DNA of 64,000 bases from positions 3,100,001 to 3,164,000 of the forward strand of contig JAUFOQ010000002.1 of NCBI GenBank assembly GCA_040285855.1, written 5' to 3'. The position numbers and the translations under genes are program-made. Below the pieces are notes generated by a model that saw nothing but the letters and a program-made list of their open reading frames with translations, did no database searches and had not been told where the DNA came from. Source of the DNA: Eukaryota sp. GEM-RC1 (Eukaryota). Below are positions 5,991 through 58,936 of the stretch, piece by piece; the first letter of the stretch is position 1; the number at the start of each line of letters is the position of its first letter.

Positions 5991-6004
5991 TTTAAAACTT
6001 AAAT

Positions 6005-9501: not shown

Positions 9502-11288
9502 ATGTCTAAACGACATGCTTCAACAGAGGACGAACCTCAGAACAAGATAACCAACGATTTTGACGATGATTTTCTTCCTTTTGAGTATGAAGTCTTATCT
9601 GGCGATGCTGCTGCTTCTTTTCTCTCAGATCTTCCCGATCAACCTACCGAGACTCCTTCTACCTCAGAACCCTCCAACAGTGTCCGACTTGCATCCAAGA
9701 AGTCCAAAGAAAGAAAAAAGATCATTAAACAACCCAAAAACACTCTTTCCATGATCCACTCCACGTCAGCAGACGATACAGCATCTTCTTTCGACCTTCA
9801 GTCTTCCCAATGGTACACACAACTCTCACTTCACCCATCACTTTGCTTGTCTCTTCACCACCTCTCTATCAACACCCCCAACCAAGTACAGTTAGCTACT
9901 GTTCCTTTATTCTTTCAAGATCACGATATTGCTGTAGCAGCTGAAACTGGTTCCGGTAAAACCTTCGCCTTTGCTCTTCCTCTTATTCATCTTCTCTTGT
10001 CTGAGAAGTTTTCTCGTAAGGGACCTAATGTGGTGGTGATTGCACCTACTAGAGAATTGTCAACTCAGATCACTGATGTTTTTAAAGTTCTACTGTCATT
10101 TGATGACGCTTTAGCAAAGGAAGTTGTTTGTATTACAGGGGGGTTAGCTCATGAAAAACAAATTAAAATTTTGAACAAAAAAAGACCTAGAATAATTGTT
10201 GGAACTGTTGGAAGATTATTGGAAATTCTATCAAAAGGAATGAGTGATTGGTTGACTGTGGAAAAATTAAATTTTTAAAATATTTGATTATCGACGAAGC
10301 TGACAAATTTGTAAATTCGTTGGATTTGAAATCTTTCTTGGAGAACTTTACATCATCATTTCAAGTTGCTCTTTTCTCAGCTACTTTGGAGGATGAATCT
10401 AATGGAATTGAAAAACTGTGCACAAGGTTATCCATAAATTTAAAAAATCCACAATATTTAGATTTGAGAAGTTCCTTGGTGGTTTCAACTGTTCGCGAGT
10501 ACAAAATGAATGTTGTCTCTCAACAGAAGGATTTGTATCTGTATCAGCTACTTATTGTGTTGTTAGAGTATCTTCAAAATTTTAAAATTTTCATTTTCGT
10601 CAATTCCATCGACTTAGTTAAACGGTTAACCTCTCTTTTAAATCTTCTCCTACCCAACGTCACTGTCTTAGGCATACATGCTAAACTTCAACAAAAAAGC
10701 AGACTAAAAATTTTAGAGAAATTTTCAAATTCTAAAACTCCTTTTCTTTTAGTTACGACAGACGTCTCATCGCGGGGACTTGATATCGAATCAGTTGATT
10801 CAGTGATTCACTACTCGGTACCAAAGACATTGGACGATTACGTTCACAGAACAGGAAGGTCAGCACGTTGTGGAAAAGATGGATCGTCAATCATGTTGTT
10901 GACTCCCGAAGATTTTAAGGCCAAAATCAAAAATGATATTGATTTGATGAGTCTGACGGAGGTTCGTAAGGAACTTTTTCCAATAGTTATGAGTGAACAA
11001 CACACAGTCACCCTTTTAAGTGACAGATTTCGACTGGCAAAGGAAATTGAACAAATGTCGTTTTCATCAACAAAGAAACATATGGAACAGAAAGGAAAAC
11101 TGGCACAAATGGCCAAAGCGGCAGGTTTGGTTGATGAATCAGATGATGAGGACTCAAGAAGACAATCAAAAAAGATGAAGGTCAAATTACGTGAGCTCAA
11201 GCAATCACTTTCAGAATTGATTTCAATGCCATTGGAAGGACGTCGAAAAGGTTTTGTGGTTGTTAATGGTGGTTTAAATACTATTTAA
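9502..11288 (+). CDS. DDX24: DEAD-box RNA helicase, DDX24/MAK5-like (frameshift near 10270)
   Basis: AETGSGKT, PTREL, DEAD, SAT, RGLDI and HRTGRSAR motifs; ITGGLAHEKQ and IFVNSIDLVKRL...HAKLQQKSRLKILEKF resemble DDX24/Mak5. Confidence 0.8.
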
Positions 11289-14078: not shown

Positions 14079-14495
14079 ATTATTTTAATTATTTAATTGA
14101 TTGGGCTTTTTTATTGTATTATAGGTTTTTGAATCGGAAACCAGGAAAGAAATGACTAAAATTATTAAATTAAATTGTTATGAATGTTTTTTTGACTGGA
14201 AGTCTATATCTTTTCTAGCCTAGCTCACAGTTTAACCTAAAAATTAGAATTTTACCACGAATACAATTGAACTCTCTTACTTGTTGTTATCCCCGTCATC
14301 ATTCGCAAAGACCAAAAGGCAACGACAAACGAGGATTATTCGACACGCACAATTTTGAGCATATTAATTCTGATTATTCTAATGTAATTAGGTTTTATAT
14401 TATAGATTAACGAAATACAAACAACTAGTACTTAAAAGATTATTCTTATTTTTTTCTGATTGAGCGGTATTTTTTTCTCATTGAAGGATCAGACC

Positions 14496-14520
14496 TGTCC
14501 ACACGTGTCTTCGAACATTG
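14496..14520 (-). repeat. Solo terminus of the CAGTGTTCGAA hAT MITE family
   Basis: Reverse complement matches 41891-41915 at 23/25 nt. Confidence 0.6.
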
Positions 14521-14871
14521 ACGTTGAACACTTTTTTACAACTTTTTTAACACTTTTTTTGAGCGTTCGAGAGGAACACTTTTTCGATACAACGAGTATA
14601 CAGCTAGCAAAGCTTTGGATTCTAAAAAAATGTATTTAAAGAAGAGCTGAAAAAAAATTAAAGAAGAACAATTGTTATCTATAACAACGCTCTTTATTAA
14701 ACGGCTTTAGTTGCTATTACAATGGAAAGAATGCAAGTTTGTTAATAGAAGTGGAGTTATAAAGATCAACTGTGTTAAAGTCCATAGTTATTGCTGAAGA
14801 GGACAACCAAGGACCAATCAAAATATTTCTGCTCTTATCTTTCATAATAGAGGTACATGTAGGCAAATTTT

Positions 14872-22816: not shown

Positions 22817-25800
22817 TTATTGCCCTACTAGGAAGTCTGCTTCAGATGATGCCAAGATTGCCGAAGTTGTTTTGTCTGTTGAGTCTAAACAGTCTGTTCT
22901 TGATTTCCAAGAGACTGTTTGTGAGCCTAAAATTAATTCATCAATTTCATTGACCTGTCTTTTTTGTGCTAAATCTGTTTCTGGGAAAAATAAATCCAAT
23001 CGTCCACTTCTTGTGTGTTTTGATTGTTCACCTATTGATGTATGTCGTCCACAATTTAGAATTCCTATCATGATATCTCCAATGGCGGCCGTTAATGTCG
23101 GGACTGCTCTTAGAAGTGTGACACAAATTTTACGTGGTGGAATTTGGAATCCCGCACCTTTTGGCGATATATGTTGTCAATTGTTAAGAAGTCCAATAGA
23201 AAAATTAAACCTGTTCTTAAGTCTCAAGTTAGTGATAAGTTTATTGCTAAAAGATTTCAAAATCTTGTTTTACGAGGTCAGTTTTCTTCTGCTTTGTCCT
23301 CCCTTAATCACACACTTCCAGCTGAAGTTTCTGTTGAAACTGTTGAAAAACTGAAAAAATTACACCCTGTTGAAGAATTTTCAGGCAATCCGGTTTTTGG
23401 TGAACTTTCCATGTCGTACTGGACTAACAAACCTGTTTTAGTTGATGAAATTTTACAATTAATTTCGTCATCCCCTTCTGGTCGTGCTGCTGGTCCTTCT
23501 GGTATGAGTTTTGATCATTTTAAAATTGCCGTTAATGCTGTTCCTGAAATTTGTGAAGATCTTGCTGTTTTCTTTAATGAAGTTTTATTAGGCACAAAGA
23601 AATTACCTCATGCTCTTTGCTCTTCTAGATTAGTGGCTTTAAGCAAACCAAATGGAGGTGTGAGACCAATTGCAGTGGGTGAAACAATTTCTCGTATTTT
23701 TTCAACTTTGTGCTTTAGGAGAGTCAGAGATTCCTCTGTTGAATTCTTTAGACCGTTTCAATTTGCAGTTGGAGTTCCTGATGGTACTACGTGTGCTGCT
23801 TTAACCTCTGATTTTCTTTTTCATTCAAATGAGGAAAATGCCATTTTGAACATTGATTTTAAAAATGCATTTAATTGTGTTTTAAGATCAACTATATCTG
23901 ACGAACTTTCTAAATTTTTTCCTCAGTTGATTCCCTATTTTAATATTTTTTATGGTAAAGCGTCGAATTTAATTTATGACAAGTTTGATATTAAATCAAC
24001 TAGAGGGGTTAAGCAAGGTGATCCTTTGGGTCCTTTTTTGTTTTGTCTCGCTCTGCAAAAATTATTTAAAATCTTACAATTAGAATTTCCAACTGTTAAA
24101 ATTTGTGCTTATGCTGATGATTCTTCGCTGATCGCTCCAGTTGACGTTCTCAAAAAGTGTTTTTCACGTTTCATCGAACTTTCTTTGAGTATTGGTTTAA
24201 CAATCAATTTTGATAAGTGTTTTCTTGTTGTTAAGTCTTCGAATGTTTCTAATCTTGGTTTTTGTAATATTCCTATCATCGATTATTCTACTCAATGTTT
24301 TCGTTTCCTTGGCACGTTTTTGGGAAATTTTGAGAAAATTCATTCAGAATTGGAGAGTTCATTAACTACAATTGAAGAAAAACTAAATCAAATATTATCT
24401 TTAGATGTGAGCAAACATGTTTCCTTTGCTATGCTTCAGGTCTGTTTTTCCGGGAAAATTAATCATTTTTTACGTTCATTAGACTATTCCCTTACTGAAA
24501 CATTTGCCAAGAAATGTAATTCTATTAGAACAAATTTTCTCTCTAACTTGGCTGAAATTGATGAGTCTAAGATTCCATTTCATGCTTTTTATTCTTCTGA
24601 ATTCGCAGGAGTAGGTTTCACCCATGCAAAAATCATTAGAAAATCTGCTCTTTTAGGAGGTGTTAAGAATTTTATGTTTGAATTTTTGAAACGGTTTCCC
24701 TTGGATGGAATCAATCTGTTGAATTCCAGTAATTGCCGTTGGATTCAATCTGCTAAAGATTTGTTATCATCTTTGTCTCCTGAAATGTGGGAATCTTTGT
24801 TCCCTGCTCATTTGAAGGAGACTCCTTTAAAAAATATTTCATCTCTACCATCTGCTGTATGTAAGCTGCAAAATAAATTGACAAGGAGTTTGAACTCTTG
24901 GACTTTAATAATCGTATTAGCTTGGCTAAAACTAATAGTCCCGAGTTCGCTGCTTTTTTAATCGATCTTTGTAATAGTGGACCTTCTGGATTTATTTCTC
25001 AAATTCCAAAGGTGTATGGATTACATCTATCTGATGAAGCTTGGATGATCAATATGCGTCTTCGTTTGGCTATTTGGCCTGCAAATTTATTAAACTATTC
25101 AACGTGCTCTTGTGGAGCTAATGGTGTTTTTCGTCATTTAATTAATTGTCGTTATTTTATTCATCTCCGTGCAGTAATTCATGATGGTGTACGTGATTCT
25201 TGTTATTCCATGTTTAAAGCACATGGTTTTCACTCTAAAGTTGAACCAGTTTTGAATCATCTTTCAGAAAATGAATTTACTGATCAAAAACGAGGGGATC
25301 TACATACTCCGTGGCTTAAATCGAGTCAAGCATTAATGGATTTTACTACAGTAGATGTATGTAACAAATCTTGTGTTAGTAGGATATTAGATTCTTCTTT
25401 TAATCCATTAACAGCAGCTGAAAAGCTCAAACACACCAAGTATGACTCTCAAGTAGAAGAATTAAATAGAAACTCATATTCCAAATTTGTGTTTCAACCT
25501 TTTGCTGTTTCTCTTTTGGATCTATTAGTCCTGCTGGTGATCAATTTTTCAAGGATTTCGAAGAATTGTGTAAAGAAAAGAAGCGTAAGTTTAGAATGGC
25601 TGAATGGAAAAACCGTATAGTGTTTTCCATATATCGAAATATGCCTTTCTATTTCTCTAGATTAATTGAGAAATTGTACAAGTTTGGTGTGAAGGTTCAT
25701 GTAGATAAACGTAATCTTTTACCGGGTGGTGATGAAGTCGTTTGGATTTAATCTTAGTATTATTTGTTTGTTTTTACAATTTCATAGTTTGTAGAAAGGT

Positions 25801-30339: not shown

Positions 30340-32398
30340 ATGACTCTTCTACCCAGTGATAGAAAGGCAGCAGCCTTTTTCTTCTTCAGTTCTAGAGGGG
30401 ATTCTGACTCTGAAGGGGAACTCGAATCTCTTTCTTCCCTAGTTCTTCATGATGATCAAGTTTTTTCCTCTGCAGAAGAAGCTTCTGAATACGAACTCTC
30501 CGATCATGAAAACGATACTCCCGCTACTGCTAAATTCCTCCTCAGACCTAAATACGGTCGTGAGTATTTCTATAAGACTACTGATGATCGGGAAGCGGCC
30601 TCCAAAATTAAAGCCAAGCCCATCAAGCCGAAGAGAGAGGACAGAAAACCCACTGAAAAAACCACAATCACACCTTCTACACGCAAGGAGGAAGACCTTA
30701 TCCTTACCAGAGGTGATATCACCAAGAAACTGACCGAGATCCTCACGCTGCGTGGTAGGAAGTCCATCGATCGTAGAGAACAAGTCGATGCTCTAAAAGA
30801 ACTTGCCGATGTTGCCAAGAAACTGAAACTCCCCAGTCTAGAAGCCCACCTTAAACTACAAGTAGCCTCTGCTATCTTTGACATCATGGTCGGACAAGCC
30901 ACCATTGCCATGCCTAGAGATTTGTGGGGGGAAGCTCTAACTATGCTTAACGAAGCGCTTACCCTTGCCGACGAGAATCCCGTCATTGTCCTCGACTCCA
31001 AGCTCGTTGACACCGCCCCTACTGAAGATGTTGCTTTCTCCATGCATCTCTCCCTGTCCCCTTTTGTTACCAAGCTTGAGTACGAGCTGACCAAGGCTCT
31101 GCAGTTGGTAGACTATCGTGATGCAGAGGAGTATCAACAACGAGTTGATGACGAGCTGGAGTTTCTTAAACTGGCTGAAAGAGCTCAGGATTACTATCAT
31201 CGGAACGAGTTGTACAGTCACTGTATCCATTTGGCCCTGCGTCAACTGGAACACGTGTTTTTCCGAACTGATGACGAACATAGCCATTTGCTCATGTTCC
31301 CTCAATTTTGACCACTCAAAGGTTCAAAATGTGACGTCATTGATTGAGTCTTTGGTTAAGATGATCTTCTCCGAGTATCACTCTAAAACTAGAGATAAGA
31401 ATAGAGAGGAAGCAGATGATGAGTTCTATGCTATTACTAAGACTTCTCTGCTGTACGTGCATCATTTGGCTCTTTTAGGAAGGTTTAGAGAAGCTAAAGA
31501 TCGTTTATTGATGACTCATCTACATGAGAAACTTCATGATCCTAAATATCCCCTTTCAAATGATCATTCAATCAAAATGATTTACAATAGAGTTTTGACT
31601 GTGCTTGGTGTATCAGCATTTAGGAATGGTGAGTTCTATGATGCGGTTTCCCTTTTGTCAGATGTTGTTGGCTCTGGAAAAGCTAGGGAATTGACTTCTC
31701 AAGACTTCAAACTTCCTAAACATGCACCATATAATCAATTTTTAAAATTGGAGTTGATTGAAGTCGTGTTTCATTTGTCCGCTCTTTTGATTGAGATTCC
31801 GTTCACTGTTGGATCTAAGAACGTCACTGTTGCTCAATCCTTAATGACTCCTTCTATGCCTTCTCTCTTCGATTGTACTGATAGAACTAGAAGACCTTTC
31901 ACCAAGGTTTTTAGAAGATTAATGGGTATTGAACAGAGAGCTTTGTTCGCTACCCCACCAGAGTCGTCAAGAGATTGGACTGTTTACTTGGCTAAGGCTG
32001 TAGAAGAGGGAGAAGTAGGAAGAGCTGTGGAGATTTTGCAGAATTTAGATATTTGGAATAATATTGCTAATTCCGAAGAATGTCTGGAGCTGTATGAAAC
32101 CGAGCTTCGTGTAGCTTGTTTGTTGTGTTTTGTTCACAAATCTATTGCTCAGATTGAGTGTATTCCTTTGTCTTTATTGTCTGATATGTTTTTGATTTCT
32201 CTTGATCGATTGGTGACGTTATTTAGTCAGTTTATTGTGAAAGGATGGATTATAGGAAGGTTAATCAAAAATGATGGCCAATGGGTGTTAAAGTGTGGTC
32301 AGCAGCCGGCATCTGATCCTTTTGTCTTGGAGGTTTTCAATTTAGCTGAAAAAAGTAGTTTTTTGAAGGAGTTGTTACTGTCTGAGCCTTCTACATAG
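30340..32398 (+). CDS. EIF3C: Translation initiation factor eIF3 subunit c (frameshift near 31305)
   Basis: KKLTEILTLRGRKSIDRREQV, YELTKALQ.VD....EY..R..DE, AKDRLLMTHL, PPESSRD and PCI-like C-terminus. Confidence 0.88.
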
Positions 32399-34306: not shown

Positions 34307-34822
34307 TAAAGAACAAAAATAATTACACTGGTCATTCTGTTGTAATTAGACTATTTTACTTTTCGATTTTCGGGCATTAGAGATTTCCGGTGTCAAATTG
34401 GAGTGAATAATTGAACCACTATACTAGTAGGAAGGAAGTGAGAAATTTCTCTGTCATTAATCACAGTATAGCATAATATGCTAAGCATATACACTTTTCT
34501 TGGATAAAAAGTAACTTTTGATTACGCATTTAAACTAAATAAACTGCACTTTGAGAATTACTGTGATGCACACTATGTGCTTGATTTTGTTCTATAACCT
34601 AGTTTTACCAGTAAAAACTTGACTCATTTTTTGTGTATTATGATACTCAAAGAATATTATCGCATGTTAATGAAGAGATACGTGATGATACTGTTAGAAG
34701 ACGCAATCAAGAAGACCGCAGGTGTGTTTAACAAGTAATGTATACGGTTGTTTATTATATGATGATGATCGTCAGTACTACAATGATGAGCCGTCGTTGT
34801 CATTTATGGTCCAGAGACCATA

Positions 34823-35267
34823 CACTAATCACGGTAATTAGTCTCACGTGGTAGTTAGTCTCACTCAGACTAATTTTCTGTTGTAACACTTTTAACTAAA
34901 ACTCGATTGGAAATAAGTCTCACTTTTTGTAATAGAAAAGTTCTTTTCAACAAATAGAACAACCTTCGGCTAATACAAATGCTGAACCACGACGATGTTT
35001 CTTCTATTCCCCTACCAGTAGCATCTCCATTGATGTTTGTATTTACACGTCAAGAAATTGTTGGTCAGGACGTCGTTCTTTCAATAATGAGCGTATTATA
35101 GCACATCCTTCTGGTTGCCGAAGGTTAATGGTTTACTGGTTGGTTTATCCATCCTAATATGATTGTTGTGGAAGTATATCAAGCTGACGAATGCTCTGCT
35201 ATTCTATTGATCATTATGAATGAGAACAAAATTTGGTTGGATGTGAGACTAATTACCATGATTAGTA
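34823..35267. mobile_element. Tc1/mariner-type MITE
   Basis: 25-bp TIR CACTAATCACGGTAATTAGTCTCAC / GTGAGACTAATTACCATGATTAGTA (2 mismatches), flanked by TA on both sides. Confidence 0.8.
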
Positions 35268-35612
35268 TAGCCTGACAAACAATTGACATACTCTCATTTG
35301 TGATGTTATAACCATTGCATTACTTGTCGAATACAATATAAATTAAGTATTTTAACAATTGCCCTCATCGACTCCAAAGCACTCCCAGCAGTGAGTTTTC
35401 TTTTGGAGGACAAAACTACTTTAATGTCACAATGGATGCAGATTGAAAATCGAGTCTCTTGTATTCATTCAGGTTGAGTAATATAAATCTTGAAAAACAC
35501 ACACACAATAGTAAGAGTTGATCAAGTTTCGGCTTCAATTTTATTCATCAATTAGAAAATAACACCATATTTTGCGTATTTTCATCCCAAATAAAAAAAG
35601 AAGAAATATCAC

Positions 35613-36110
35613 TCACAAAAAAGTGCGATACCCAATTATGGATAAATGTGAAACATAAAAGAACCAATGATGTGGTACAAATCTACAGTGTACTAAACGT
35701 TCATTTGAAAAGTGATTTATATGATTTGGAGAAGAAACATAATCATCCGCTGTCCTTTTATTAGTGGGGAAAGCGGATGCAAAAGCGGGTGCGATTTTCT
35801 GGTAGAATCTGACATCGCACCCGCTGTCTTTGTCTAATGTTTCTTTCATTAAGTAGACTTTACTTCTTGGTGGTTGATTTTGATCCTTTCTGAGCAATCT
35901 TGCGTTGTTTCGCCTTGTGTGCATAAATTCGGCGGTTTGCATTCTTGCCAAACTTGGCAAAAGTACAGCCGTGATTGATGGGTTGTCCCCGAACCTTTTT
36001 GTTGCATCTGAAACAAAAGAATCCCATGAAATCAGCTCATTTATACACATAGTTTTGTAATTATAGAATAAATATTGTTTTCTGTTTTCCAATTTCACAT
36101 CATATACCAT
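35613..36110 (-). CDS. Hypothetical protein divergent from the 2A/Fanzor cassette
   Basis: 165-aa ATG ORF starting ~140 bp from the 36253 ORF; no recognised domain. Confidence 0.4.
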   Translation of the reverse strand: MVYDVKLENRKQYLFYNYKTMCINELISWDSFVSDATKRFGDNPSITAVLLPSLARMQTAEFMHTRRNNARLLRKDQNQPPRSKVYLMKETLDKDSGCDVRFYQKIAPAFASAFPTNKRTADDYVSSPNHINHFSNERLVHCRFVPHHWFFYVSHLSIIGYRTFL

Positions 36111-36252
36111 ATACTGTTAGTTACAATTAGTACGACATCAACTGTTATTGTATCAGTGACATATTCTCAAACTTGTCAAGATGTCAACATGTCAATGTAG
36201 ACATTAACCACAAATAGTTCAAACAGAAATTTAAGATCATTCGCTTAGTGAG

Positions 36253-37371
36253 ATGTCTATCGACTTTGTGTTGGTTAGATATCTCACTGTGCTTCGTCTC
36301 CCCCACTGTCAGGAGCCTTCAATGGGTCTTTTGATCCTCAGATCACTCCTTTGCTTGGTTTGTTGTCTTATCACTCAAGACCGTCAGGTCTTTATGAAGA
36401 TTTTCATGGGTCCCTCGATCCTCAAATCTCTTCTATTTCTTTTTTGTTTTTGTCTTATCACTCAAGACCGTCAGGTCTTTATGAAGATTTTCATGGGTCC
36501 CTCGATCCTCAAATCTCTTCTATTTCTTTTTTGTTTTTGTTATAGTACTGCATACTGTAGTGGTTCTTGTTGTGCTGGTTGCATTACAAAATCCAAAATA
36601 AATCTCCAGTCATCACAATTTCTCCGTGATTTGACTATGGACGGGGACATTGAGTCTAATCCTGGACCCGATCTAATTGAAAATCATTCCAATATTGATT
36701 CTTTGCTACCTCATAGTTGGTTATGGACCACTATTGTAGACTTTTATGGACAGTACATTACTGAACATAGTGTTAAATGTTCATATCTCTCGTGTGAAGC
36801 ATTGTCACTTGCAATTACAGAGGACAATTTGGCTGAAGAAGAAAGAGATCGTTGGCATCTTCACAAACTATTTCAAGACACCTTAGATTTGATGAATTCT
36901 TTCAGACCACCAACCAAACAATATTTGTTTATTCCAATAAACGATGGTATCTTTAATAATGAAGCTACTCACGGGACTCTGTTGATTTGTGATATTAAGA
37001 GAAAAAGATACTATTCCCTTGATCCAATGTTTACTCAAAATCAACATCAAAAGTTTTCAGATACTTTAGGTCGTTGCGAAGATGTTATTAGACAATTTGA
37101 ATATGATGCTCTAGAAATGAGGAAAAGGATTTTGAATCTCATCATTGACACTCACACTGGTCAACATCGATCTGTTGCTCAACAAATTTTAAATTCAATC
37201 TTGTCTGGAGAAATTGTACAACAAACAATCGAAGTTCAACAAACAACTCAAGTTTCTACTGGTAGAAGAAAGACACAATGTCCCAAAACTAATCAACCTG
37301 CTGGAAAAGAAATAAATCTTCTGACACTTCTGAAAGAACTACACGTAAGTCATCTCGTCGTAAAACTCTAG
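36253..37371 (+). CDS. Polyprotein part 1: hydrophobic leader - 2A peptide - Ulp1/SENP8-like (C48) protease domain, degraded
   Basis: RDLTMDGDIESNPGP, then LLPHSWLWTTIVDFYGQYI and YLFIPIND...THGTLLICDIKRKRYYSLDP, matching C48 protease architecture; no QxNxxDCG catalytic Cys motif seen. Confidence 0.65.
   Translation: MSIDFVLVRYLTVLRLPHCQEPSMGLLILRSLLCLVCCLITQDRQVFMKIFMGPSILKSLLFLFCFCLITQDRQVFMKIFMGPSILKSLLFLFCFCYSTAYCSGSCCAGCITKSKINLQSSQFLRDLTMDGDIESNPGPDLIENHSNIDSLLPHSWLWTTIVDFYGQYITEHSVKCSYLSCEALSLAITEDNLAEEERDRWHLHKLFQDTLDLMNSFRPPTKQYLFIPINDGIFNNEATHGTLLICDIKRKRYYSLDPMFTQNQHQKFSDTLGRCEDVIRQFEYDALEMRKRILNLIIDTHTGQHRSVAQQILNSILSGEIVQQTIEVQQTTQVSTGRRKTQCPKTNQPAGKEINLLTLLKELHVSHLVVKL
36364..36540 (+). 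repeat. Perfect 87-bp in-frame tandem duplication
   Basis: CLITQDRQVFMKIFMGPSILKSLLFLFCF encoded twice (period 87). Confidence 0.95.
36613..36669 (+). other. 2A-like ribosome-skipping (StopGo) peptide 1
   Basis: SQFLRDLTMDGDIESNPG/P fits the D(V/I)ExNPG-P consensus. Confidence 0.85.
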
Positions 37372-37989
37372 AAGTAACTAATAAAATTTCGTCAAGTTAT
37401 TCTTCTTCATCTGACACATCCGTCAAAAACTCTAAAGCACGACGGCTAGAACGGAAACCAAAAAGTGTCATTCGTCAGTAATTCATCGTCCTCAAGAACA
37501 AGGTTCTAAACGTCAACAGAGACTGTATGATTTAAGTTGGGAAAAGTAGTAAGGTGAAGATGAATTGAGGAAGTCTAGGTCATCATCATAGTCACGTCTG
37601 AGCTCTACTCCTGTAACTAAATGAGAAAATCCAAGAATATCTTCAACTTCAAAGGAATCGTCAACATGTAGGAAAACAGATGACACAGCTGCTTTAAAGA
37701 GGGAAGCGATGGAAGTAAGTTGAGGAAGATCTTCAGGCAACATAGGAAACGTTGTAGTTTTAAAAAACACATTGGTTGATTGTTGTATGGATTCACTGAA
37801 ACGGTGACTGACTTGGCTAACCGGAAGAATACGGGCAAATCATGTATCAAGTGTTTGAAAGGACTATCAGGGGAAACGACATCCAACTCTAGAGAAGATC
37901 GTAAGTGACGTTTAAGCCACCGTGTGATTACAAAGATTAATAAGGACTTTTCTAGGTAAATTGGTATGAATTTTGGATGATTTAAAGAT

Positions 37990-40900
37990 GTGGATTGTGT
38001 ACCAATGCCTCAATCTCAATGGAAACGGAATCTCGCAGAAGATGGAGATGTTGAGACTAATCCCGGACCTCGCAATTCTCATGATCAATCTAGTGGTTGT
38101 ACAAAATTTCCAAAAACTGACGAAGAATGTCAAAGTTCGCAAGTAGTTGAAGGTTCAACTGGTTCTTTGAATGAATTTGAGGAAATTCCAGTTGTTAAAG
38201 GAAAAAAGGAAAAAGAATCAAGAATTCCATTTATTGACATTGCAACTGATACTGTTGTCGATGACTCCCTTCCTACAGTTTTTATAATTGATATTGAAAC
38301 AAGAAATATCAATGAGAGAATTCCTACACGAGTGAACAAAGAATTGAATGAACATCGTAGAACGGAAAAAGAGTCTTTGAAACAGAGAAGATTGTTAATG
38401 AATGATTTTGAGAAAGAAGCTCACGACCTTGATTTTCTCGCAGATCAACAAATCATCATGATCTCTGTCATTATTGCAAAATTGCAATCCAACGGTGAAT
38501 TACAATTTGACAACTCAATCGTCCTTTACACTGACTACAACTATAAAATCAAATTCAGTGAATCAGAAACACCAGCTTTTAAATTAGATCTTTTGGACTT
38601 CCCAAATGAAAACGAATTATTGGTTAAGTACGCTAATATTGTTAATCAATATAAACCAAATGCTTTTATTGGACATAATATTTTCAATTTTGATTTGCCC
38701 ATAATTGACAATAGAATGTGGGCTCTTGACCTTCCTCTTTTAACTAACCCAATTCCAATTCAGTTACCTTTACATAGTAGATGGCTGGATATCATAAAAG
38801 ATCACAATGGTTTTACAGTTTTGGATACCTTCATATTTGCAAAGAAGTATATTGGTCTCAAGTATGGTTGTAGTCTAGCTAATTTATCTTGGAATTTACT
38901 TTCTGAACCCAAATTGAAATTGGATAAAGACTTGGATCACTTACTCCCAGTTGATTGTTTAAGAAATGATAAAAGAATGAAAACTTTAATCAACTACTGC
39001 CTTCATGATTCAATTTTGGCGTTTAAATTGTTTATTTTATTTCAAAAAGACAAAATTGTTTTTCAATCATGGGCTTCTATTAAAACATCAGTTGTTAGTG
39101 TGGTAAAACATCAAGAAGTTCAAGATGCCATGCTTTTAGGATCTCAGTTTTACAATGCTTTAAGACAACAGACTACAATGTGTGTTAAAGAATATCTGTT
39201 GGCTCGCTATCGTCTTGGACAAGATTTGTCTAAGTTTGATTACAAGTTGTTTTATCATACAATGCTTTCAATTAGAAATCTTTCATCTGAAGTTCATGGA
39301 TTCAAAATATACAACAATTATCCTATATCAACAATTGATACAGATCTTCGTGATTTTGTTACTGGAGAAGGAATCTATACTGCCAATTCAAACTACCCCG
39401 GATATAAGCACTGTGTTACTGATACATTTGGCCAATGTCATATACCAGAACTGGATTTTGATCACATCAGTAGAGCTTTTGAATACACTACTCAGTATGA
39501 AATGTGGCCTGCGTTTGAACTAAATATTCGTCGCAATTATGAGTTGTACATTAAAAGATTTATCAATACAGTAATGGGTAAGAAAGAGTTTGAAAAGGGA
39601 ATGAAAGAGAGTCGTAATTTAGTTTTAGGTCCAGAACTTGCAGGACTAACAGGACGTGAAGCTCAAAAGTTCACTAGTTACTTCAGATTTCGATTAAAGA
39701 TGTTGAAAGACCAGATTTTGTATCGAGCTAGAGATGATGCCTTACACTACATTAATTCTTTTAACTCTGCCACTCACCCTGAAAATGTTAAGTTTATTGA
39801 TGAAGTTTCCAAAGTTTTTGATGATGATTTCAGTATGTTAATATTTGAACAGGTTAATTCTCTAATGGCTGATAAAATTCCAGAATTACTTCAAAGATTT
39901 AACATCATATTTCCTACTTCAATCACTACTAACGACAATGAAACTGTAGACGTTCATAATTTACTTTACACAGTTCAGGAGTATCCACTTCATTTTCTAA
40001 GAAATTCTCTTCAAATCTCAGATTACTTGGAATCCAAGGGTGCTAAGTTGTATAATGTAATTCCTTTAAGTTTAGAGAATACTCCTTGTTTTTTCCCAAT
40101 AGATACCAGAACTCTTTGGGGACTGGCTAAGCACTGTTTTGGATATAAGAATAAAGATAAGAAGATTGGTCCTTTACATTCAAAAGTGACTAATTACATG
40201 TCTGCTGATCAGATTAAAAACTTGACCCATTCTCAACAACAGGATTACTGGAAAAGATGGTTTAACTATGATGACAGAAGTTTTCACAAAGCCAATTTTG
40301 AATTCAACAACTATGCTGTAACTGATGGAATTTCGATTTGTTTTCAATTTGTGAGAAAGGATTTGAAAGGAATGAAATGTAAACCTGATTCAAGTAAAGC
40401 TTCAGTAAAAGTACAATATTTCAATGAATGTGATAGGTCTGATTTTTTATTTCTAAACAAATGGTTTATGTGGACATTGGAAAGAGAGATATGCTACAAC
40501 TTGCATCTAAATCAAATAGGGAAACTCAAAATCCTCTAAAGAAATACAACTTCTTACGATTGACATATGCTGAGTGGTCTAGAGTTTCAAGAAAGCATAA
40601 AAGAATCCACCAGTACCTTGTTAGAAGGAGATCAGGTACTACTACCGTGAGAGCAGGTGATGATATTCCATTAACTGTAACAATGAAAATTGAGAAATGG
40701 AACACTTGGTTAAGTGAAGAACAGAATTCTAAAACTGTTAATTACAATAAATTTAGAAAGTTTATTCTGGCTAAATGCATTCACTACAATGCAACTAAAG
40801 ACTTCTATGATTTGCATATATGGAGGATTCACAAAATCCAAAATCATGTCCATAAGCAAAAGACAGAGTCTAAATTGGTTAACAGCATTGTAAAAACTTT

Positions 40901-41353
40901 CGGTAGTCGTGACAAAATTGTACTATGTATTGGTGATTTAGGTCAGAAACCAATCACCAACTTAAAACACAGTCCACCATCCAGAACTAAGACTTGGACT
41001 TCATTCTTTCAGAGAAACGGTTTTTTAACAGTGATGAATGATGAGAGAAACACTTCGTCCAAGTGTCCAGAATGTCATGAAGATGTTTTTGAAACTTCTA
41101 TTGAGGTTGTCAACCCAAAGCCCAAATCAAGAGAGAAGAGAGAATGGATTCACCCACATGGCTTACTAGAGTGTAAGAGCAAACATTGTCTGGGAGAAGT
41201 CAAGAAGCGATTGAAGGGGAAAAGAAAGGGTACACAGTGCCCAGTCAAATGTATTGGAATCGAAACAAGATGGCTTGTTTGAACATGATGAACATGTTCG
41301 AGCATTGGATGAGTGGTAGTGATGAGAGAGTAGAGTATTTGTGTAGAAATTAG
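37990..41353 (+). CDS. 2A - PolB-type DEDDy 3'-5' exonuclease fused to Fanzor1 (frameshifts near 40450 and 41225)
   Basis: ExoI IIDIET (38290), ExoII GHNIFNFD (38671-38694), ExoIII YCLHD (38995-39009). In the same ORF follow Fanzor motifs NIRRNYELYIKRFIN, LYNVIPL...PIDTRTL and TDGISICFQFVRKDL; then RuvC-I VYVDIG (40473), IGDLG, DERNTSSKCPEC (E 41043), HGLLECKSKHC, and YWNRNKMACLNM...RVEYLCRN* (41249-41353). Confidence 0.88.
38014..38070 (+). other. 2A-like ribosome-skipping (StopGo) peptide 2
   Basis: SQWKRNLAEDGDVETNPG/P fits the D(V/I)ExNPG-P consensus. Confidence 0.85.
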
Positions 41354-41363
41354 CTTTATTTTT

Positions 41364-41446
41364 GTTAGCTGGCTGGTGAAACCCGGCCATATTTGGTTAA
41401 TTCCATGAAATGAATGAATTGACGAGAATCAAATCTTCTTGTTGAC
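41364..41446 (+). ncRNA. Candidate Fanzor omegaRNA scaffold (locus 2)
   Basis: Starts 10 nt after the stop. Closing stem GTTAGC/GTTGAC encloses hairpins TGGCTGG-TGAAAC-CCGGCCA (41370-41389) and GTTAATTC/GAATTGAC (41396-41423). Confidence 0.55.
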
Positions 41447-41890
41447 TTTGCCTCTAAAACTAGTATTAAGGTTCGAATATGACATAGAGGTTTATAAGGT
41501 AAAAGGAAAAGAGAATTCTAATGGTAAATAAAGCTAATAAATCAACACTGGTCTTCTCTCTTCTTCTTCAGTGTTTTGGAAATAATTCAAAATTTTGGAA
41601 AATAAGAAGATAGGTTACTTCTTATTACGTGGAGAAGAACGTTTAGGGGACTTCTGGTTCTTAATAAAGTCAAAGATTAGAATCAAATCCTCTAGATTTT
41701 TTTCGTGTTAGTACGATATTCTTCCTGAGATCCTTTTACAGTCAATAGTTCACGATACTCTTAAATTATCAGTAAATTAAGATAACAGAATAACAACTAA
41801 ATAACAACATTTGCAAAGTGATTTCAAATTTTTGGAAACACAGTTGATAACACTTTAGGAGTTTACTAAATACAATATTTGTATCGGCGA

Positions 41891-42403
41891 CAGTGTTCGA
41901 AGACACGCGTGGACACGTTTGGACACGCAGACACGTTTGGACACGGACACGGTGTCTTTTGAAAAACACGCAAAAAGACACGCAAAAAGACACCGCGTAT
42001 GTACGTGTTTTTCTGCAAAAAACCTAGAAAACTTCGAAAGTACCCTTTTATTTCCCTCAATATTGTTCGACTTGAATGTTTTTCTATATGCTATACCACA
42101 ACAGACTGCAATGCCAACAGAAAAGTGGCCAAAATACTGACATGATGCGTTGTCAAACAAACCTGGAACACAATTCAACTCAACAGAACCACAGAATCCC
42201 AGATTCAGTGATGGGATGTCAGATAAAGGCCAGAATTGGCCCAAAACAATGTTTTCATAGTCAAACTCTGTGTAGTTGACGAGAATTTTTTTTGAAAAAA
42301 CACGCAAAAACACCCAAAAGACACATCAAAGACACCGTGTGGACACGCGTGTTAACACCGACACGGTGTCTTTTAAAAAACACGTGGGAAATTTCGAACA
42401 CTG
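41891..42403. mobile_element. hAT MITE
   Basis: TIR CAGTGTTCGAA...TTCGAACACTG; 8-bp TSD ATCGGCGA (41883-41890, 42404-42411); GACAC subterminal repeats. Confidence 0.93.
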
Positions 42404-42915: not shown

Positions 42916-44000
42916 TTACTGAACAACTGCTCCACTAACAAAACGTTCACTGTCTAAATAAGGCGATTGGAAATATTCGTATTGTTTCCACCCACATCTG
43001 TTAAAGATTGAGGTACAATCAATATTCATGTTCACTATGACACGTTGCAAAATTGAAATTGTGTCATTAATTGTTCTTGGTGGATGATGAAAAGAAGCAT
43101 CCGCTACTCTGTTTCTGAACTGTTTAAAGAACATTTCAATTGGATTGTTCTCAGGAGTGTAAGGAGGGAGTATACGGTATTTTATACCGCAGTGGTGGTT
43201 AAGTGCTGCTTCAAGTGCAGGAGATCGATGAATGGCACACCCGTCTAACACCCATTTCGATCGAACACCATCATTATCTTGTACAAAACCTCCTAAGATT
43301 AAATCTGTTATAAAGCTCATGTATTGTAATCGTGAAAATGTCCTTTTGTATATGATGGAGTACATAACCATTTACATCTATGGCTACTATCAGACATACA
43401 GTTTCATCCATTTGAGGGGCTGGTGGAGCTGCTACGGGTGTTCCAACAGGAGAATATCCATACTGCCGTTGAAAATGGCAAGGAGTAAATGAGAGTTCAT
43501 CAATAAAGAGAAGTTGCGGTAGAAGTAAGATACCAAAGTCGGTTTGTAGTCGGTACTGAAAGCTGGTTATCAGTCTTAACCGAGCTTTGTACATCAAAGG
43601 AACACATTTCTTATGACTTAAACCATTTTTAATTATGATCCTTGGAAGCAGTTGATTTCGATATAAGAATGTCAAAAGTTGAGTAGATATACTGTTGTAG
43701 TTCGCGCAGGTAGATGTGAGGATTGTCAATGACCCAATCAACCACGGTTTTCACTTGTACTTCTGTCAGAATACGGCTAGTGCGTGTGCAGACAATTTCA
43801 TCATCAGTATCAGACATCATCTCAGTCTTCCATCGGCTAATGGTTGATTGACTGACGTGATAAAAGAACGCGATGTCATTTTGGGTGAGACCATGAAGTA
43901 GTAAGCAACTCATAGCTCTTGCTTTAGTATCAGGGCTGGCTTGAATCTTAGAAGACAAGATTTCATGTCCATTTAAGACATGGGAGTAATCAAATCCCAT
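42916..44000 (-). mobile_element. IS630/Tc1-mariner superfamily transposase, DD35E, frameshifted
   Basis: HTH (LTQNDIAFFYHVSQSTISRW; NPHIYLRELQ), LLFIDE, VLDGCAIH...LPPYTPENNPIE with 35 residues between D and E; spread over three overlapping frames; TIRs not found. Confidence 0.88.
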
Positions 44001-44142
44001 TATTTAGACAGATTCAGCTTATCAGAGAAGATGGAAACTTTTTGGGAAAAGGGAGAAAATGGGGCAAAAGAAAAACCGGAATATTTACCAGAATTAAGAC
44101 CCACTGTCTGATTCAGTTAACTTATTTTCCACTCTAACATCC

Positions 44143-45272
44143 ATGTCTGACTTCGAAGAATTTGATCGCGAACAAGAAGAGTTCCAGGAAATGACTCTTG
44201 ATGATCCTACCACTATTACTTATTATAAGACAGCATCAGACATCTCAAATGCTGCACTTGAACGAGTTCTTTCAGCAGTGAAACCCGGTTCCTCAGTGGT
44301 CGATCTCTGTCGCCTTGGTGATAGCGCTATCGTGGAACTTTGCTCTGCTGTTTTCAAAAGAAGAAGGACATCGTCAAGGGTATTGCTCACCCCACTTGTG
44401 TTTCTGTGAATAGTCAAGTCAATTACGTTTCTCCTAGCCAAAGTGATGATGCCATCATCAATGAAGGTGATGTGGTAAAAGTGTATCTTGCTGCTCACAT
44501 CAACGGTCTTGCTTCTCACGTTGGACAAACCATTGTCTGTCTTGCCGATCTAGCTTCCCCAGTGATTGATCGCAAAGCCGATGTCCTCTGCGCTGCCCAC
44601 TTTGTTTCCGAAGCCGTGTTACGAAAGCTCCGCCCCGGTGTCACTAATACCGACATTGAATCCATTGTCCGTAAGGTCGCTGAAGAGTTTGACTGCCACC
44701 CAGTAGAAGGCCAGATCTCCTACGAAGGTGCTCAGTGGACCATGGAAACCAACCGTGTTATTCCTAGTGCTCTCACCCCTGATCAACGTGTTGATAGCTA
44801 TGAACTAGAGGAAAACACCGCCTACCATATGTCCTTCTTCATCTCCACTGGAGAAGGTAAGTCTCGCCAAGCCGATAACCGAACAACTATCTACAAGCGT
44901 GACCCCAACACTCTCTACAACCTCAAGATGAAGACATCTAGACAGGTGTTCAACGTCATTATGAACCAGTTCAATGACTTTGCTTTCTCTCTTAGACAAT
45001 TGGACGATATTGACTCCAAGCTCCGATTGGGTATTCCCGAGTTGTCCAAGCATGATATGATTTACCCGTACCCTGTTGAAGAAGAAAAGGATACCAATGC
45101 TTTTGTAGCACAGGTCTCCTTCACTGCTTTAATTCTACCTAAGCAAACCCAGAAGCTTCTGACAGTTTCTCAACCTAATGTTGTTTCTTCATCGAAGGAA
45201 ATTAAGGATGCTGAGATTGTTGAACTTTTGGCAACTGAAGTGGAGAAAAAGAAGAAAAAAGTAGTAGTTTAG
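44143..45272 (+). CDS. PA2G4: Proliferation-associated 2G4 / EBP1 (M24 fold), frameshift near 44360
   Basis: YKTASDI..., LCRLGD, KGIAHPTCVSVN, RKADVLCAAH, RTTIYKRD..YNLKMKTSR. Confidence 0.93.
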
Positions 45273-57139: not shown

Positions 57140-58936
57140 TTGCCAATGTCGTGTACTCGTTTCTGCAGCGCTGCTGCATTCTTCCAGGAACGTGCACGGG
57201 CTTCAATTGTTGAAGACGTGGCCTTCTTAACAAAGGCAGCTTACTGGACGTCTCTCTTTGTCCGTAAGTTTCTCCACCAATTCCCCGAATTGGGTAGTTG
57301 GGCCACAACTCATGACTTCTGGGTCACAGCATTTGATTTCATGCTGAAGACCAATCCCAGATCTAGGGCCCAGTTCCAGGACAAGCCAAACCGGCATCCT
57401 GAAGTCTTTGCCGCCTTCTGGCAGACCAAATCTGCTTGGCCATACGGGGTGCTAGCCGGCCAAGTTGATGCTCAACTGGTATCAGCTCGGGCGAAACAAT
57501 TGGCCCAGAATCACCGCCAGATTCTGACTGACGGACCAGTGGTGTGGTCAACCAATTGGTTCCACACCATGGCTCAGTTACGAGGATGTCCTGTCCCAAA
57601 GGCATACTCAAAAGCCTGTGTTGGGACCAGCTCCTTTCCTCCATCCGTGCGTCAGTGGGTAGGGTCCAACCACCAAAGACTTCTAGAAGAATTTATCAAC
57701 TGTCTTGGTGGACCCGCTGCCTACTCACAGTGGCTTGAGATCCTCTCCAGTCGGTCTTTGCTGTTGAGTAGCGAGAAGGCCTCGTTTATATCAACAAGAG
57801 GTCTGAGATTGCTCTCCTACTTGGAAGCAATAGCTCCCGTGCTCATGAAGCGCAATAGGCTCTCACCTATTGCGTCTTTTGTACCAGGGATGATCACCCT
57901 CAGCGAACAGACCCTGGCTCGATACTGCCGCCTAAATGATACTAGGGCCTTAATGATTTCTCCATATGAAAAGCACCACGAGAAGCCTTCCAGATATCCC
58001 ACGTGGGCCATGTCTACTAATGGCCTCAGTGTTTATGTTTCCTTTCAACCAAAGGTTCGTCTGAAACGACGACGAAGAACCAAAGCCGAAATGGAGGTGG
58101 CTCGTGATGCAGGCAGCATTGATGATTTTCGCCCTAGAGAAGTAAATCGAAAAAAGAATCTTAAAGGCAAAATCCCAAGACGAAATTGGCAAGAGGTTCC
58201 AGATGATTCTTGGCCTCAAAACCCAGTTGATCCTTTCTTCGTTGCCATCGACCCCAACCACAAGAACTTATGTGGTTGGACTGCAGGGGTAACTGATCCC
58301 GATGGACCACAACACTCAGGTCTCCTGCTGAACCCTAAACCAGAAGAATGGGTTCCTGAACGCACGATTACTCAGCTGAGTGCTGATGTGTACCTTGCTC
58401 AAGACTTCGACCAGTACTTGTTTGAGATCACAGCTACACGTGAAAACCTGGGGAATCAGTCTATTGTTGACTTTCACCTAAGTCAGGGCCTTGTTTGGGA
58501 GCGTCGAAGACGAAAGTTCGATTTTTTGATAAGAAAACAACAACGATTAGACAATTTTGTTGTAAAGATAGAGAAGCTAGCCGAAAACAGGCCTGTTTAC
58601 ATTTGGTTTGGAAAAGGAGGAGATGGAGCATCACGCCAGGCTGTCAAGAGTCCAAGAACATGGTTTCTGAAAGCTCTGAAAACTCGATTTGATCATGTAA
58701 AGATGGGAGATGAATACTATACATCAGCTAAAGTGGCTTGTCACCGTCAGTTTGGAAGGAAACTTCGTGTACTTGTGAATGGAAATATGAAGACTCTGTA
58801 CACCCACTTTCAATGTCCGGTATGCTCTTTAATTTGGTCTAGGGACATTTCAGCGTCCATCAACCAGTGGTACATCGCTCTGGAGGAATACTATCACAAT
58901 AGTAGGCCGATAGAGTTTCGACGTCCACATAGATAA
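57140..58936 (+). CDS. Intact Fanzor (TnpB-like RNA-guided endonuclease), ~598 aa
   Basis: TNGLSVYVSF; RuvC-I VAIDPN (D 58250); YIWFGKG; RuvC-II GDEYYTSAKVACH (E 58712); FQCPVCSLIWSRDISASIN (D 58844); terminal RPIEFRR. Confidence 0.9.
   Translation: MPMSCTRFCSAAAFFQERARASIVEDVAFLTKAAYWTSLFVRKFLHQFPELGSWATTHDFWVTAFDFMLKTNPRSRAQFQDKPNRHPEVFAAFWQTKSAWPYGVLAGQVDAQLVSARAKQLAQNHRQILTDGPVVWSTNWFHTMAQLRGCPVPKAYSKACVGTSSFPPSVRQWVGSNHQRLLEEFINCLGGPAAYSQWLEILSSRSLLLSSEKASFISTRGLRLLSYLEAIAPVLMKRNRLSPIASFVPGMITLSEQTLARYCRLNDTRALMISPYEKHHEKPSRYPTWAMSTNGLSVYVSFQPKVRLKRRRRTKAEMEVARDAGSIDDFRPREVNRKKNLKGKIPRRNWQEVPDDSWPQNPVDPFFVAIDPNHKNLCGWTAGVTDPDGPQHSGLLLNPKPEEWVPERTITQLSADVYLAQDFDQYLFEITATRENLGNQSIVDFHLSQGLVWERRRRKFDFLIRKQQRLDNFVVKIEKLAENRPVYIWFGKGGDGASRQAVKSPRTWFLKALKTRFDHVKMGDEYYTSAKVACHRQFGRKLRVLVNGNMKTLYTHFQCPVCSLIWSRDISASINQWYIALEEYYHNSRPIEFRRPHR

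Follow-up and report, generated by a model that had tools for sequence, protein, structure and literature searches.

The window analyzed here, a 64-kb (64,000-nucleotide) stretch of the genome of the single-celled eukaryote Eukaryota sp. GEM-RC1, carries on one strand a leader with a 2A-like motif and a C48 protease cassette, a closed linker, and a core (38005-41353) in which a 2A motif is followed by a PolB-type 3'-5' exonuclease and then by a full Fanzor1 (Table 1). The locus represents a damaged copy of an element that is probably mobile. Protein records show the element to be multi-copy, the other copies being 87-97% identical to the window copy, and its copy number suggests mobility as a cut-and-paste element. 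Neither element ends, terminal repeats, a target duplication nor a transposase turned up around the window copy; its flanks contained no inverted repeat longer than 9 nt and no convincing target duplication between them. The hAT-like and Tc1-like elements nearby are distinct from the Fanzor element, each being bounded by ends of its own.

Table 1. Features of the locus, in positions of the window.
Feature	Position	Strand	Basis or remark
ORF1 leader	36253..36609	+	87-bp unit repeated in tandem, two and a half times; no domain recognized
2A-like motif 1, core GDIESNPGP	36610..36669	+	predicted skip before Pro at 36667
SENP8/NEDP1-like C48 protease, broken, with tail to stop	36670..37371	+	stop common to 7/7 copies
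Linker	37372..38004	+	open in no frame
ATG, then directly 2A-like motif 2, core GDVETNPGP	38005..38070	+	predicted skip before Pro at 38068
Low-complexity linker with basic cluster	38071..38280	+	cluster also in P0095/P0098
PolB-type (Pol delta-like) DEDDy 3'-5' exonuclease, no polymerase domain	38281..39060	+	profile match, motifs, fold
Intact Exo motifs	ExoI 38281-38301, ExoII 38671-38697, ExoIII 38995-39012	+	
Full-length Fanzor1 (WED/REC, RuvC, zinc finger)	39079..41353	+	stop 41351-41353
Fanzor1 RuvC catalytic residues	D 40473, E 41043, N in WNRN 41252-41269	+	
Candidate omegaRNA scaffold, three predicted hairpins	41354..41450	+	folding

The DEDDy exonuclease proposed in the initial annotation was borne out by a match of ORF2 to DNA_pol_B_exo1 (E=4.5e-14) and by its intact Exo motifs. 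Its best matches were proofreading domains of DNA polymerases, among them Pol delta (E=3e-10). The ExoI DxE, ExoII Nx3D and ExoIII Yx3D motifs were all intact in 11 proteins from three species; ExoIII was garbled in P0037. Residues 132-379 of the P0086 model (pLDDT 78.5) aligned with PolB exonucleases over about 185 residues, with Z of 17-18 and an rmsd of about 2.7. The polymerase domain PF00136 had no match in the window ORF or in any fusion protein scanned. In the same model, the Fanzor WED strand begins within about 5 residues of the end of the exonuclease. No 2A motif lies between the two domains and the exonuclease stays fused to Fanzor, which had been overlooked. The basic cluster upstream of the exonuclease is a possible nuclear localisation signal.

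The assignment of the downstream part to a Fanzor1 RuvC and zinc finger was confirmed in copy P0011, whose C-terminal part matched SpuFz1 (E=8e-16) and PpFz1 (E=7e-15). The Fanzor1 motif D-X(125,275)-[TS]-[TS]-X-X-C4 zinc finger-X(5,50)-RD (PMC3627910) was matched in the window, except that RD is replaced by RN: TS at 41052 lies 192 residues after the Asp at 40473, and the C4 finger spans 41064-41189. The rearranged RuvC-II Glu, near the zinc finger, aligns with the DE motif of SpuFz1 and PpFz1. Residues 381-1096 of the model of P0086, a protein ~30% identical to the window copy, aligned with PpFz1 (9cf0) over 577 residues (Z 27.0, rmsd 3.5). In 14 of 15 proteins of the clade, RuvC ends in WNRN. 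The first reading of the locus had missed that Asn is the third RuvC residue. We rejected the idea that WNRN marks a dead RuvC, because the D-E-N triad is reported to be active in GtFz1, as it is in SpuFz1 D606N (PMC11423790).

The exonuclease-Fanzor fusion is real, with profile support, and is conserved across three species, although the single frame claimed for it in the window copy is broken by two one-base frameshifts. Two -1 shifts are needed to read it, at a T-run (40443-40448) and near a G/A run (41216-41224), the second placed by comparison with in-frame copies. The first site, at the RuvC-I junction, is read through in 12/12 other copies, and the second in 2/7 (P0011 and P0118, to the C-terminus). 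The fusion also occurs in two other named species, at 25-55% identity and with intact exonuclease motifs and a D-E-N RuvC triad, and the exonuclease-Fanzor clade (9 of 26 tree rows) had support of 100/100. P0075 was left out of the count of proteins with both domains because it is a full PolB. P0030 and P0086 are complete exonuclease-Fanzor proteins at ~30% identity, and P0095 (1,233 aa) holds 2A, exonuclease and complete Fanzor within a single predicted ORF. Longer fused forms (1,403-4,005 aa) numbered 0 among 4,603 candidates, a weak negative given that a 2,027-aa member, P0085, later surfaced inside a cluster. Relatives were absent from viral contigs over three scans (3, 74 and 81 pattern matches) and from prokaryote genomes (0/24), and the ESM Atlas yielded leads below 0.9 only. 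In metagenomes, Fanzor relatives numbered 0/242 and protease relatives 9/95; none of these nine protease loci had a 2A motif, exonuclease or Fanzor.

ORF1 (36235-37371) gave a weak Peptidase_C48 match below the cut-off (E=0.0036), and intact copies matched the same profile with E=1e-10 to 3e-10. The proposed C48/Ulp1-like domain is correctly assigned. Its best match was SENP8 (E=2e-13, versus 1e-7 for SENP2), and SENP8 also took Foldseek rank 1 for the fold of intact copies, in a low-confidence model (pLDDT 53). In the window copy, the His at 36970 is retained, with HW changed to HG, and a 59-codon in-frame deletion between 37098 and 37099 has removed the Q-x-x-x-DCG motif together with the catalytic Cys. 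The His-Asp-Cys triad, absent here, is present in other copies of the same variant (P0020, P0100, P0101, P0102 and P0104). Judged by these residues, the protease is dead in the window copy, a point that the initial annotation overlooked. At least four variants of the protease exist, with a tandem arrangement in P0115.

A search of all six frames of the window found exactly two NPGP motifs, at 36646 (DIESNPGP) and 38047 (DVETNPGP), in agreement with the claim of two 2A motifs on one strand and in one frame class. Both match the class A core (G/H)D(V/I)ExNPGP, as do P0095 and P0098. The motif-1 2A also heads other C48 variants, the same 2A preceding three different ones, and the number of leader repeats differs among copies (P0027, P0104). 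P0033, P0037, P0087 and P0088 have His in place of the 2A Glu, a change reported to abolish skipping (PMC3708506), and the ORF of the P0030/P0084/P0085/P0086 family has no 2A; both observations count against 2A release. Single-position 2A variants can retain activity; skipping also requires a suitable upstream context, the core by itself being described as inactive (PMC3708506).

The continuous frame from leader to Fanzor that had been proposed was not found in the window copy. The 762 bp between 37243 and 38004 needed 11 stops or shifts to be repaired, versus 9.2 +/- 1.7 in random sequence of the same make-up, and 271 of 300 random controls needed as few or fewer; being as broken as random sequence, the linker keeps no measurable open frame. 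Over its first ~110 bp, a Ser/Lys/Arg-rich reading that starts near 37290 goes on in the -1 frame. Each of the seven copies that extend to the end of ORF1 terminates there at one shared stop. We suspected a frame error at this stop, with a selected -1 frame. In a substitution test, 1/5 distinct changes was synonymous in the -1 frame versus 34% expected, in three cleanly aligned tails (three of six were misaligned by a 3-nt indel). When the linker was scanned for codon preference, none of the frames stood out. What backs a frame error is low third-position GC (0.22) and a matching frameshift in a single-copy host gene of the window, which loses its frame in the same context, after an AAAAG run. 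A programmed -1 frameshift was also rejected: no canonical slippery heptamer was visible by eye, and assembly error is the simpler explanation given the same one-base deficits in host genes.

Both the random-like linker and the shared stop of the 7/7 copies favor a reading to which we assign somewhat less than an even chance. Under it, this family expresses no long polyprotein: the 2A-protease and the 2A-exonuclease-Fanzor would be genes apart, or cassettes that can be exchanged, and both would come with a short leader and a 2A of their own. An ATG at 38005 belongs to ORF2 itself, and one 2A heads several C48 variants. Of 17 listed exonuclease-Fanzor locus tags, just one had any of the 26 listed C48 tags no more than 5 tags away, and 0/6 free-standing copies of the window C48 variant had a listed Fanzor within 46 tags, although these tag lists are incomplete and the protein search covered 204-651 aa. 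The relatives speak against separate cassettes. In P0098, protease C-terminus, 2A, exonuclease and Fanzor form a single predicted ORF, in which the last C48 helix passes straight into the 2A motif and then the exonuclease; P0095, from a different locus, has the same C48-2A junction. P0037 is a predicted 2A-protease-exonuclease-Fanzor protein, and P0104 joins the window's protease variant to the window's Fanzor sequence. The AAAAG context of the ORF1 stop points in the same direction. These long ORFs are gene predictions and may hide introns placed over frameshifts. The two halves are thus not independent insertions that never meet elsewhere, since P0098, P0037 and P0104 each join them, and by predicted sequence the linkage to a SENP8-like protease cassette is seen in three species. 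A frame that joins protease, 2A and exonuclease-Fanzor is predicted in P0098, P0095 and P0037. For the window family the continuous polyprotein is a proposal, and against it stand the closed linker, the ORF1 stop common to 7/7 copies and the separation, by locus tag, of most listed halves.

For the compact structured RNA described at the 3' end, the predicted fold is modest (-23.4 kcal/mol, z -2.64, with 0/200 shuffles as stable), but similar values occurred in the background (z<-2 in 11 and z<-3 in 3 of 160 windows), and no Rfam match was found. We regard it as a weak omegaRNA candidate.

What the exonuclease might do can be framed as follows. We hold it to be an evenly balanced proposition that the exonuclease-Fanzor protein is an RNA-guided cut-and-trim enzyme that helps to restore the element, by copying, at a site that has been emptied. 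Through 2A skipping, an exonuclease-Fanzor of ~1,095 aa would be freed from a leader or protease, and this protein would load an omegaRNA from the 3' end of the element. The empty site would be cut 14-17 nt from the TAM, the distance reported for SpuFz1 and GtFz1 on the non-target strand (PMC10432273). Such a cut would leave, on the TAM side, a 3' tail that lacks a counterpart at the corresponding junction of the filled allele; trimming of this tail by the tethered exonuclease would let repair copy the element (restorative homing). An intact protease would blunt NEDD8/SUMO-dependent host control. The element would also need a transposase acting in trans, and no such enzyme was found. Restorative homing is reported for bacterial TnpB and not for Fanzor (PMC13565253). 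Fusion of the 5' exonuclease T5 to SpuFz1 lowered editing (PMC13434818), a result that counts against the cut-and-trim reading. The fuller proposal, tentative and rather unlikely, is a self-contained cut-trim-copy homing element whose virus-style 2A polyprotein would supply both an RNA-guided nuclease with its own proofreading exonuclease and a deNEDDylase for disarming the cullin ligases of the host.

Less probable still is that the exonuclease chews cut ends to block clean rejoining, so that deletions destroy targets such as rival elements or viruses and copy-back is not aided. Both active sites are intact across 25-55% identity, as this reading would expect, and engineered pairings of Cas nucleases with exonucleases such as TREX2 are described as raising mutagenic repair. 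By contrast, the many near-identical copies and the internally deleted derivatives (the window protease, P0104) are more in keeping with a selfish element than with a fixed host gene, and no guide or target was identified. A role in RNA maturation, trimming the 3' end of the omegaRNA guide, seems doubtful: DEDDy folds include RNases, yet the best matches here are DNA-polymerase proofreading domains, including Pol delta. Fanzor omegaRNAs are reported to end 14-15 nt past the conserved scaffold (PMC10432273), an end that takes 3' processing. RNA maturation in other Fanzors, however, does without a domain of this kind. A chance fusion, in which a Fanzor element inserted into a viral or Polinton PolB gene and merely took the exonuclease along, draws on the abundance of both genes in large DNA viruses (ESM Atlas leads below 0.9), and is very improbable and, by motif conservation, largely refuted, as three species have retained the junction and every catalytic residue despite about 70% divergence, with no polymerase remnant and no viral relative in the three scans.

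The role of Fanzors for eukaryotic hosts or elements is stated to be still open (PMC10432273), and a clade with an end-processing exonuclease on the same chain offers a sharp test of it: homing predicts removal of exactly the TAM-to-cut tail, and defence predicts larger deletions. For editing, the fusion is of direct interest as a naturally occurring pairing of nuclease and exonuclease, whose predicted coding sequence is complete in relatives (P0086, P0095); if cut-and-trim is true, nature would have arrived at a construct that genome engineers assemble by hand. Through the 2A motifs, ribosome skipping would reach beyond RNA viruses and retrotransposons into DNA elements, here with a protease cargo directed at NEDD8 or SUMO. 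Should the homing polyprotein prove true, it would rank as the first 3'-5' exonuclease-Fanzor fusion in nature and the first case of a 2A at work in a DNA transposon, and would demonstrate directly that Fanzors serve homing.

The closest known systems include Fanzor1 (SpuFz1, PDB 8gkh/9cez; PpFz1, 9cf0; GtFz1, 9cer; PMC3627910, PMC10432273, PMC11423790). In predicted models, the whole WED/REC-RuvC-zinc-finger chain aligns with Z of 20.8-27.0, the rearranged Glu lies beside the zinc finger, and Asn is the third catalytic residue as in GtFz1. Like Spu-1, the element is multi-copy with no transposase inside. Unlike known Fanzor1 proteins, the Fanzor here shares its chain with an N-terminal exonuclease of the proofreading type (~250 aa), follows an upstream 2A and is linked to a C48 protease; the available portions of the Fanzor literature described none of these three. 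The Ulp1/OTU domains that DNA transposons carry as cargo (Ginger1, Mutator, Helitron; PMC2836005) and SENP8/NEDP1 (PDB 1xt9, 2bkq) share the C48 fold and the H-D-C triad with the intact copies, but the C48 here is attached to Fanzor through 2A and not to a transposase. As reported for 2A/StopGo sequences of RNA viruses and APE-type non-LTR retrotransposons (PMC3708506; bioRxiv 10.64898/2026.09.24.754024; 10.64898/2026.06.17.732966), canonical GD(V/I)ExNPGP cores follow short leaders. The upstream (W/F)xR(D/N)L of the window motifs resembles the highly active chimeric class W(V/I)RDL...GDVESNPGP, and some 2A-bearing retrotransposon ORF2p proteins likewise have deubiquitinase domains. Unlike in those viruses and retrotransposons, there is no reverse transcriptase or RNA-virus gene here, and the predicted product downstream of 2A is an RNA-guided DNA nuclease. 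Homing of the T4 td intron gives the trimming step a precedent, as a functional analogy only: its nuclease is reported to cut 23-25 nt from the insertion site and the 3'-5' exonucleases DexA and gp43 Exo are used (PMC2988022), so that both systems would combine a cut away from the insertion point with a polymerase-type 3'-5' exonuclease. In T4 the phage makes its exonucleases as proteins apart from the nuclease, and a protein recognizes the target, whereas here the two activities would share one chain and, judging by the family, an RNA guide.

The exonuclease–Fanzor fusion is real. A Pfam-type domain scan of the window ORFs gave a strong PolB exonuclease match in ORF2, and a protein search with positions 38038–40440 returned one cluster of 18 members, 15 of them listed. 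Among the protein records of copies, P0011 begins within the exonuclease and continues as far as the end of the Fanzor; its C-terminal part matches the known Fanzor1 proteins SpuFz1 and PpFz1. The exonuclease and Fanzor assignments of the initial annotation were borne out. An unfiltered search of 1.84 billion representatives yielded 56 matches, with exonuclease plus Fanzor in 9, exonuclease only in 9 and Fanzor only in 37; P0075, a full PolB, was removed from the both-domain count. Whole fusions were present at about 30% identity (P0030 and P0086) and at 45–54% (P0095). P0086 was modelled with AlphaFold (alignment of 49 rows, pLDDT 78.5); in the model, residues 132–379 correspond to the exonuclease (Z 17–18 against PolB exonucleases) and residues 381–1096 to Fanzor1 (Z 27.0 against PpFz1, 26.4 against SpuFz1 and 20.8 against GtFz1). 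In profile comparison, Pol delta was the closest match of the exonuclease (E=3e-10, against 1e-7 for the family ranked second). A tree built from 26 C-terminal halves placed 9 rows in a single clade with support of 100/100.

By pattern, ExoI was found in 16, ExoII in 17 and ExoIII in 19 of 25 family proteins, and all three in 11; the misses were fragments, P0015 (one residue off the pattern) and P0037 (garbled ExoIII). At the RuvC end, the family has WNRN in 14 of 15 proteins and WNRD in one, whereas Asp is present in 8 of 9 proteins outside it. GtFz1 uses Asn as a catalytic residue, and the D606N change raises the activity of SpuFz1 above that of the wild type, according to the available part of PMC11423790, indicating that Asn here does not mean a dead site.

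The RuvC part of the ORF2 region lies in a different frame from the exonuclease, and the last 33 codons lie in a third. Two −1 shifts across 3,346 bp restore the exonuclease–Fanzor reading in this copy. Other copies were compared as protein records rather than genome DNA, and the nearest relatives (87–97% identical over the main segments), labelled 'Eukaryota sp. GEM-RC1' by NCBI, were counted as copies of one element family; remoter relatives are labelled 'TZLM1-RC' and 'TZLM3-RCL'. The junction preceding RuvC-I is in frame in 12 of the 13 stored proteins spanning it, this copy being the sole exception, and the C-terminal junction is in frame in 2 of 7 and shifted in 5, as in this copy. Because one-base frame changes, most of them at short A/T runs, are also seen in host-type genes of the window, the one-base deficits are likely a feature of the assembly. 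Assembly error is the simplest account of the host-gene shifts, for which genome-wide recoding may be an alternative.

Only two NPGP motifs occur in the six frames of the 64 kb, exactly the pair initially proposed as 2A peptides. Both have the canonical core sequence. Upstream of it, their residues are similar to those of a chimeric class for which 89–100% skipping in cells is given in the available text of bioRxiv 10.64898/2026.09.24.754024. The core alone is insufficient, and Glu substitutions usually abolish activity (PMC3708506, in part), which bears on four relatives with His in their 2A. If motif 2 works, the putative product would be a 1,095-aa exonuclease–Fanzor beginning at Pro 38068. 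No 2A separates exonuclease from Fanzor in any surveyed protein (118 stored).

ORF1 gave a C48 match below threshold in the domain scan and forms its own protein family (9 matches). The C48/Ulp1-like assignment stands: the family is nearest to SENP8/NEDP1, and intact copies of this variant keep His, Asp and Cys. In this copy, 59 codons, Cys among them, are deleted. There are at least four C48 variants, three preceded by nearly the same 2A. A broader SENP8-like cassette family (P0022–P0027, P0107 and P0115) mostly carries the same 2A at its head and has leaders with repeats; P0115 has two C48 domains in tandem. Ulp1/OTU cargo is known on transposons, with a suggested role in repair or transposition (PMC2836005, in part).

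Linkage of the two halves, which the initial annotation had proposed checking elsewhere, was found in three proteins. P0098 reads C48 C-terminus (match probability 69%, E=5e-5), 2A, basic linker, exonuclease and Fanzor; P0037 reads leader, 2A, C48, linker, exonuclease and Fanzor N-terminus (97%); and in P0104 a piece of this Fanzor, out of frame (86% to 40103–40186), comes after this protease (94% to 36364–37098). P0095, at a different locus, has the same junction as P0098 with a complete Fanzor. The predicted proteins P0098 and P0037 would fit the proposed single polyprotein. Against it, 11 lesions have to be mended to open the linker of this copy, compared with 9.2 ± 1.7 for control sequences. 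ORF1 ends at a single common stop position in all seven copies reaching it. Leader-2A-exonuclease without protease occurs in P0033, P0087 and P0088, with Fanzor sequence next in P0033 and P0088, and one four-protein family lacks 2A. In partial locus-tag lists (3 members unlisted, searches length-limited), 1 of 17 listed exonuclease–Fanzor tags lay within 5, and 3 within 25, of any of 26 listed C48 tags. Since the long ORFs of relatives are gene predictions, and AUGUSTUS was run after repeat masking in a published genome study of organisms so named (PMC11316075, in part), introns may bridge breaks in them, as they probably do in the P0085 helicase and P0042 DM10 fusions. In P0085 (2,027 aa) a divergent DEAH helicase is joined to a complete exonuclease–Fanzor; the helicase may be genuine cargo, or the joint may come from gene prediction. 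We read the element as modular, with shuffled 2A-headed cassettes, and this copy as a derivative with internal damage. Relatives probably make a 2A polyprotein; for the family of this copy it is an unproven candidate.

The segment proposed as omegaRNA folds with z −2.64 at the expected position, but z<−2 was reached by 11 of 160 background windows and an Rfam search of the 3' region gave no match; it is a candidate only. The window is a segment of a compact eukaryotic genome in which host-type genes, for example DEAD-box helicase, eIF3c-like and PA2G4-like ORFs as judged from their translations, are interspersed with many mobile elements (Table).

Table. Features of the locus and its surroundings (window positions)
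Position	Strand	Feature	Remarks
4936–5991	−	C-terminal fragment of a Pif1-like helicase	Helitron-like; weak Pfam matches; adjoins start of broken third Fanzor, opposite strand
~6000–8230	+	Third Fanzor	WNRD; C-terminal zinc knuckle; broken by hAT-like element
6669–7404		hAT-like element	13-bp terminal repeats; 8-bp target duplication
10248–10278; ~31290–31311; 44325–44360		One-base frame changes	Host-type genes
23114–25620	+	Non-LTR reverse transcriptase	RVT_1 E=3e-20; C-terminal part frameshifted, presumably restriction-like endonuclease
34821–35269		MITE-like element, 449 bp	27-nt inverted repeats (93%)
35613–36047	−	Short basic Cys/His-containing reading	Two frames; points away from ORF1; no match in Pfam scan; may or may not be part of element
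36235–37371	+	ORF1	Leader, 2A motif 1 (GDIESNPGP, 36610–36669), C48
37243–38004		Linker	
38005–41353	+	Core, beginning with ORF2	2A motif 2 (GDVETNPGP), exonuclease 38281–39060, Fanzor1 39079–41353
41210–41309		Strongest nearby fold	z −4.47; inside coding end
41354–41450	+	Candidate omegaRNA	
41891–42403		hAT-like miniature element	11-bp terminal repeats; perfect 8-bp target duplication; 450 bp beyond the candidate omegaRNA; related end near 14490–14523
42950–44011	−	Tc1/IS630-like transposon	Terminal repeats; HTH and DDE_3 pieces over three frames
57140–58936	+	Second, unrelated Fanzor ORF, 596 aa	Intact-looking; WSRD; Cas12f1-like_TNB E=6e-4; two more copies; very long branch in tree

Fanzor1 cuts the non-target strand 14–17 nt past the TAM (PMC10432273), and the role proposed for OMEGA nucleases is to cleave the excision-emptied site, leading to copy-back from the filled sister (PMC13565253; both sources in part). 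Given this cut geometry and copy-back from the filled allele, the TAM-side 3' end would be left with a tail lacking at the same junction of that allele, and its removal would be required. A tethered proofreading domain could trim it before copy-back. In T4 intron homing the cut falls 23–25 nt away from the insertion site, and polymerase-type 3'–5' exonucleases are used (PMC2988022, in part); on our own reading these may remove such a tail. Homing by RNA-guided cutting, exonuclease trimming and copy-back is the mechanism we favour, with about even confidence, because a tethered proofreading domain suits tail removal. Destructive end-chewing would also employ an exonuclease and is unlikely, ranking below cutting, trimming and copy-back on that ground; guide trimming, ranked below it as well, is more doubtful still.

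No natural Fanzor/TnpB–exonuclease or –2A fusion was found in the literature searched, in the parts available; Fanzor catalogues and the tables of 2A screens may contain these proteins. The available portions of 10.1101/2023.08.09.552727, PMC10432273 and PMC13565253 make no mention of an exonuclease, and those of two 2A screens and PMC11316075 none of Fanzor; the comparison also spans accessible parts of PMC10530073, PMC3627910, PMC6338049 and PMC13434818. The component parts are all known; what appears to be undescribed so far is the fused enzyme, together with its 2A/protease setting.
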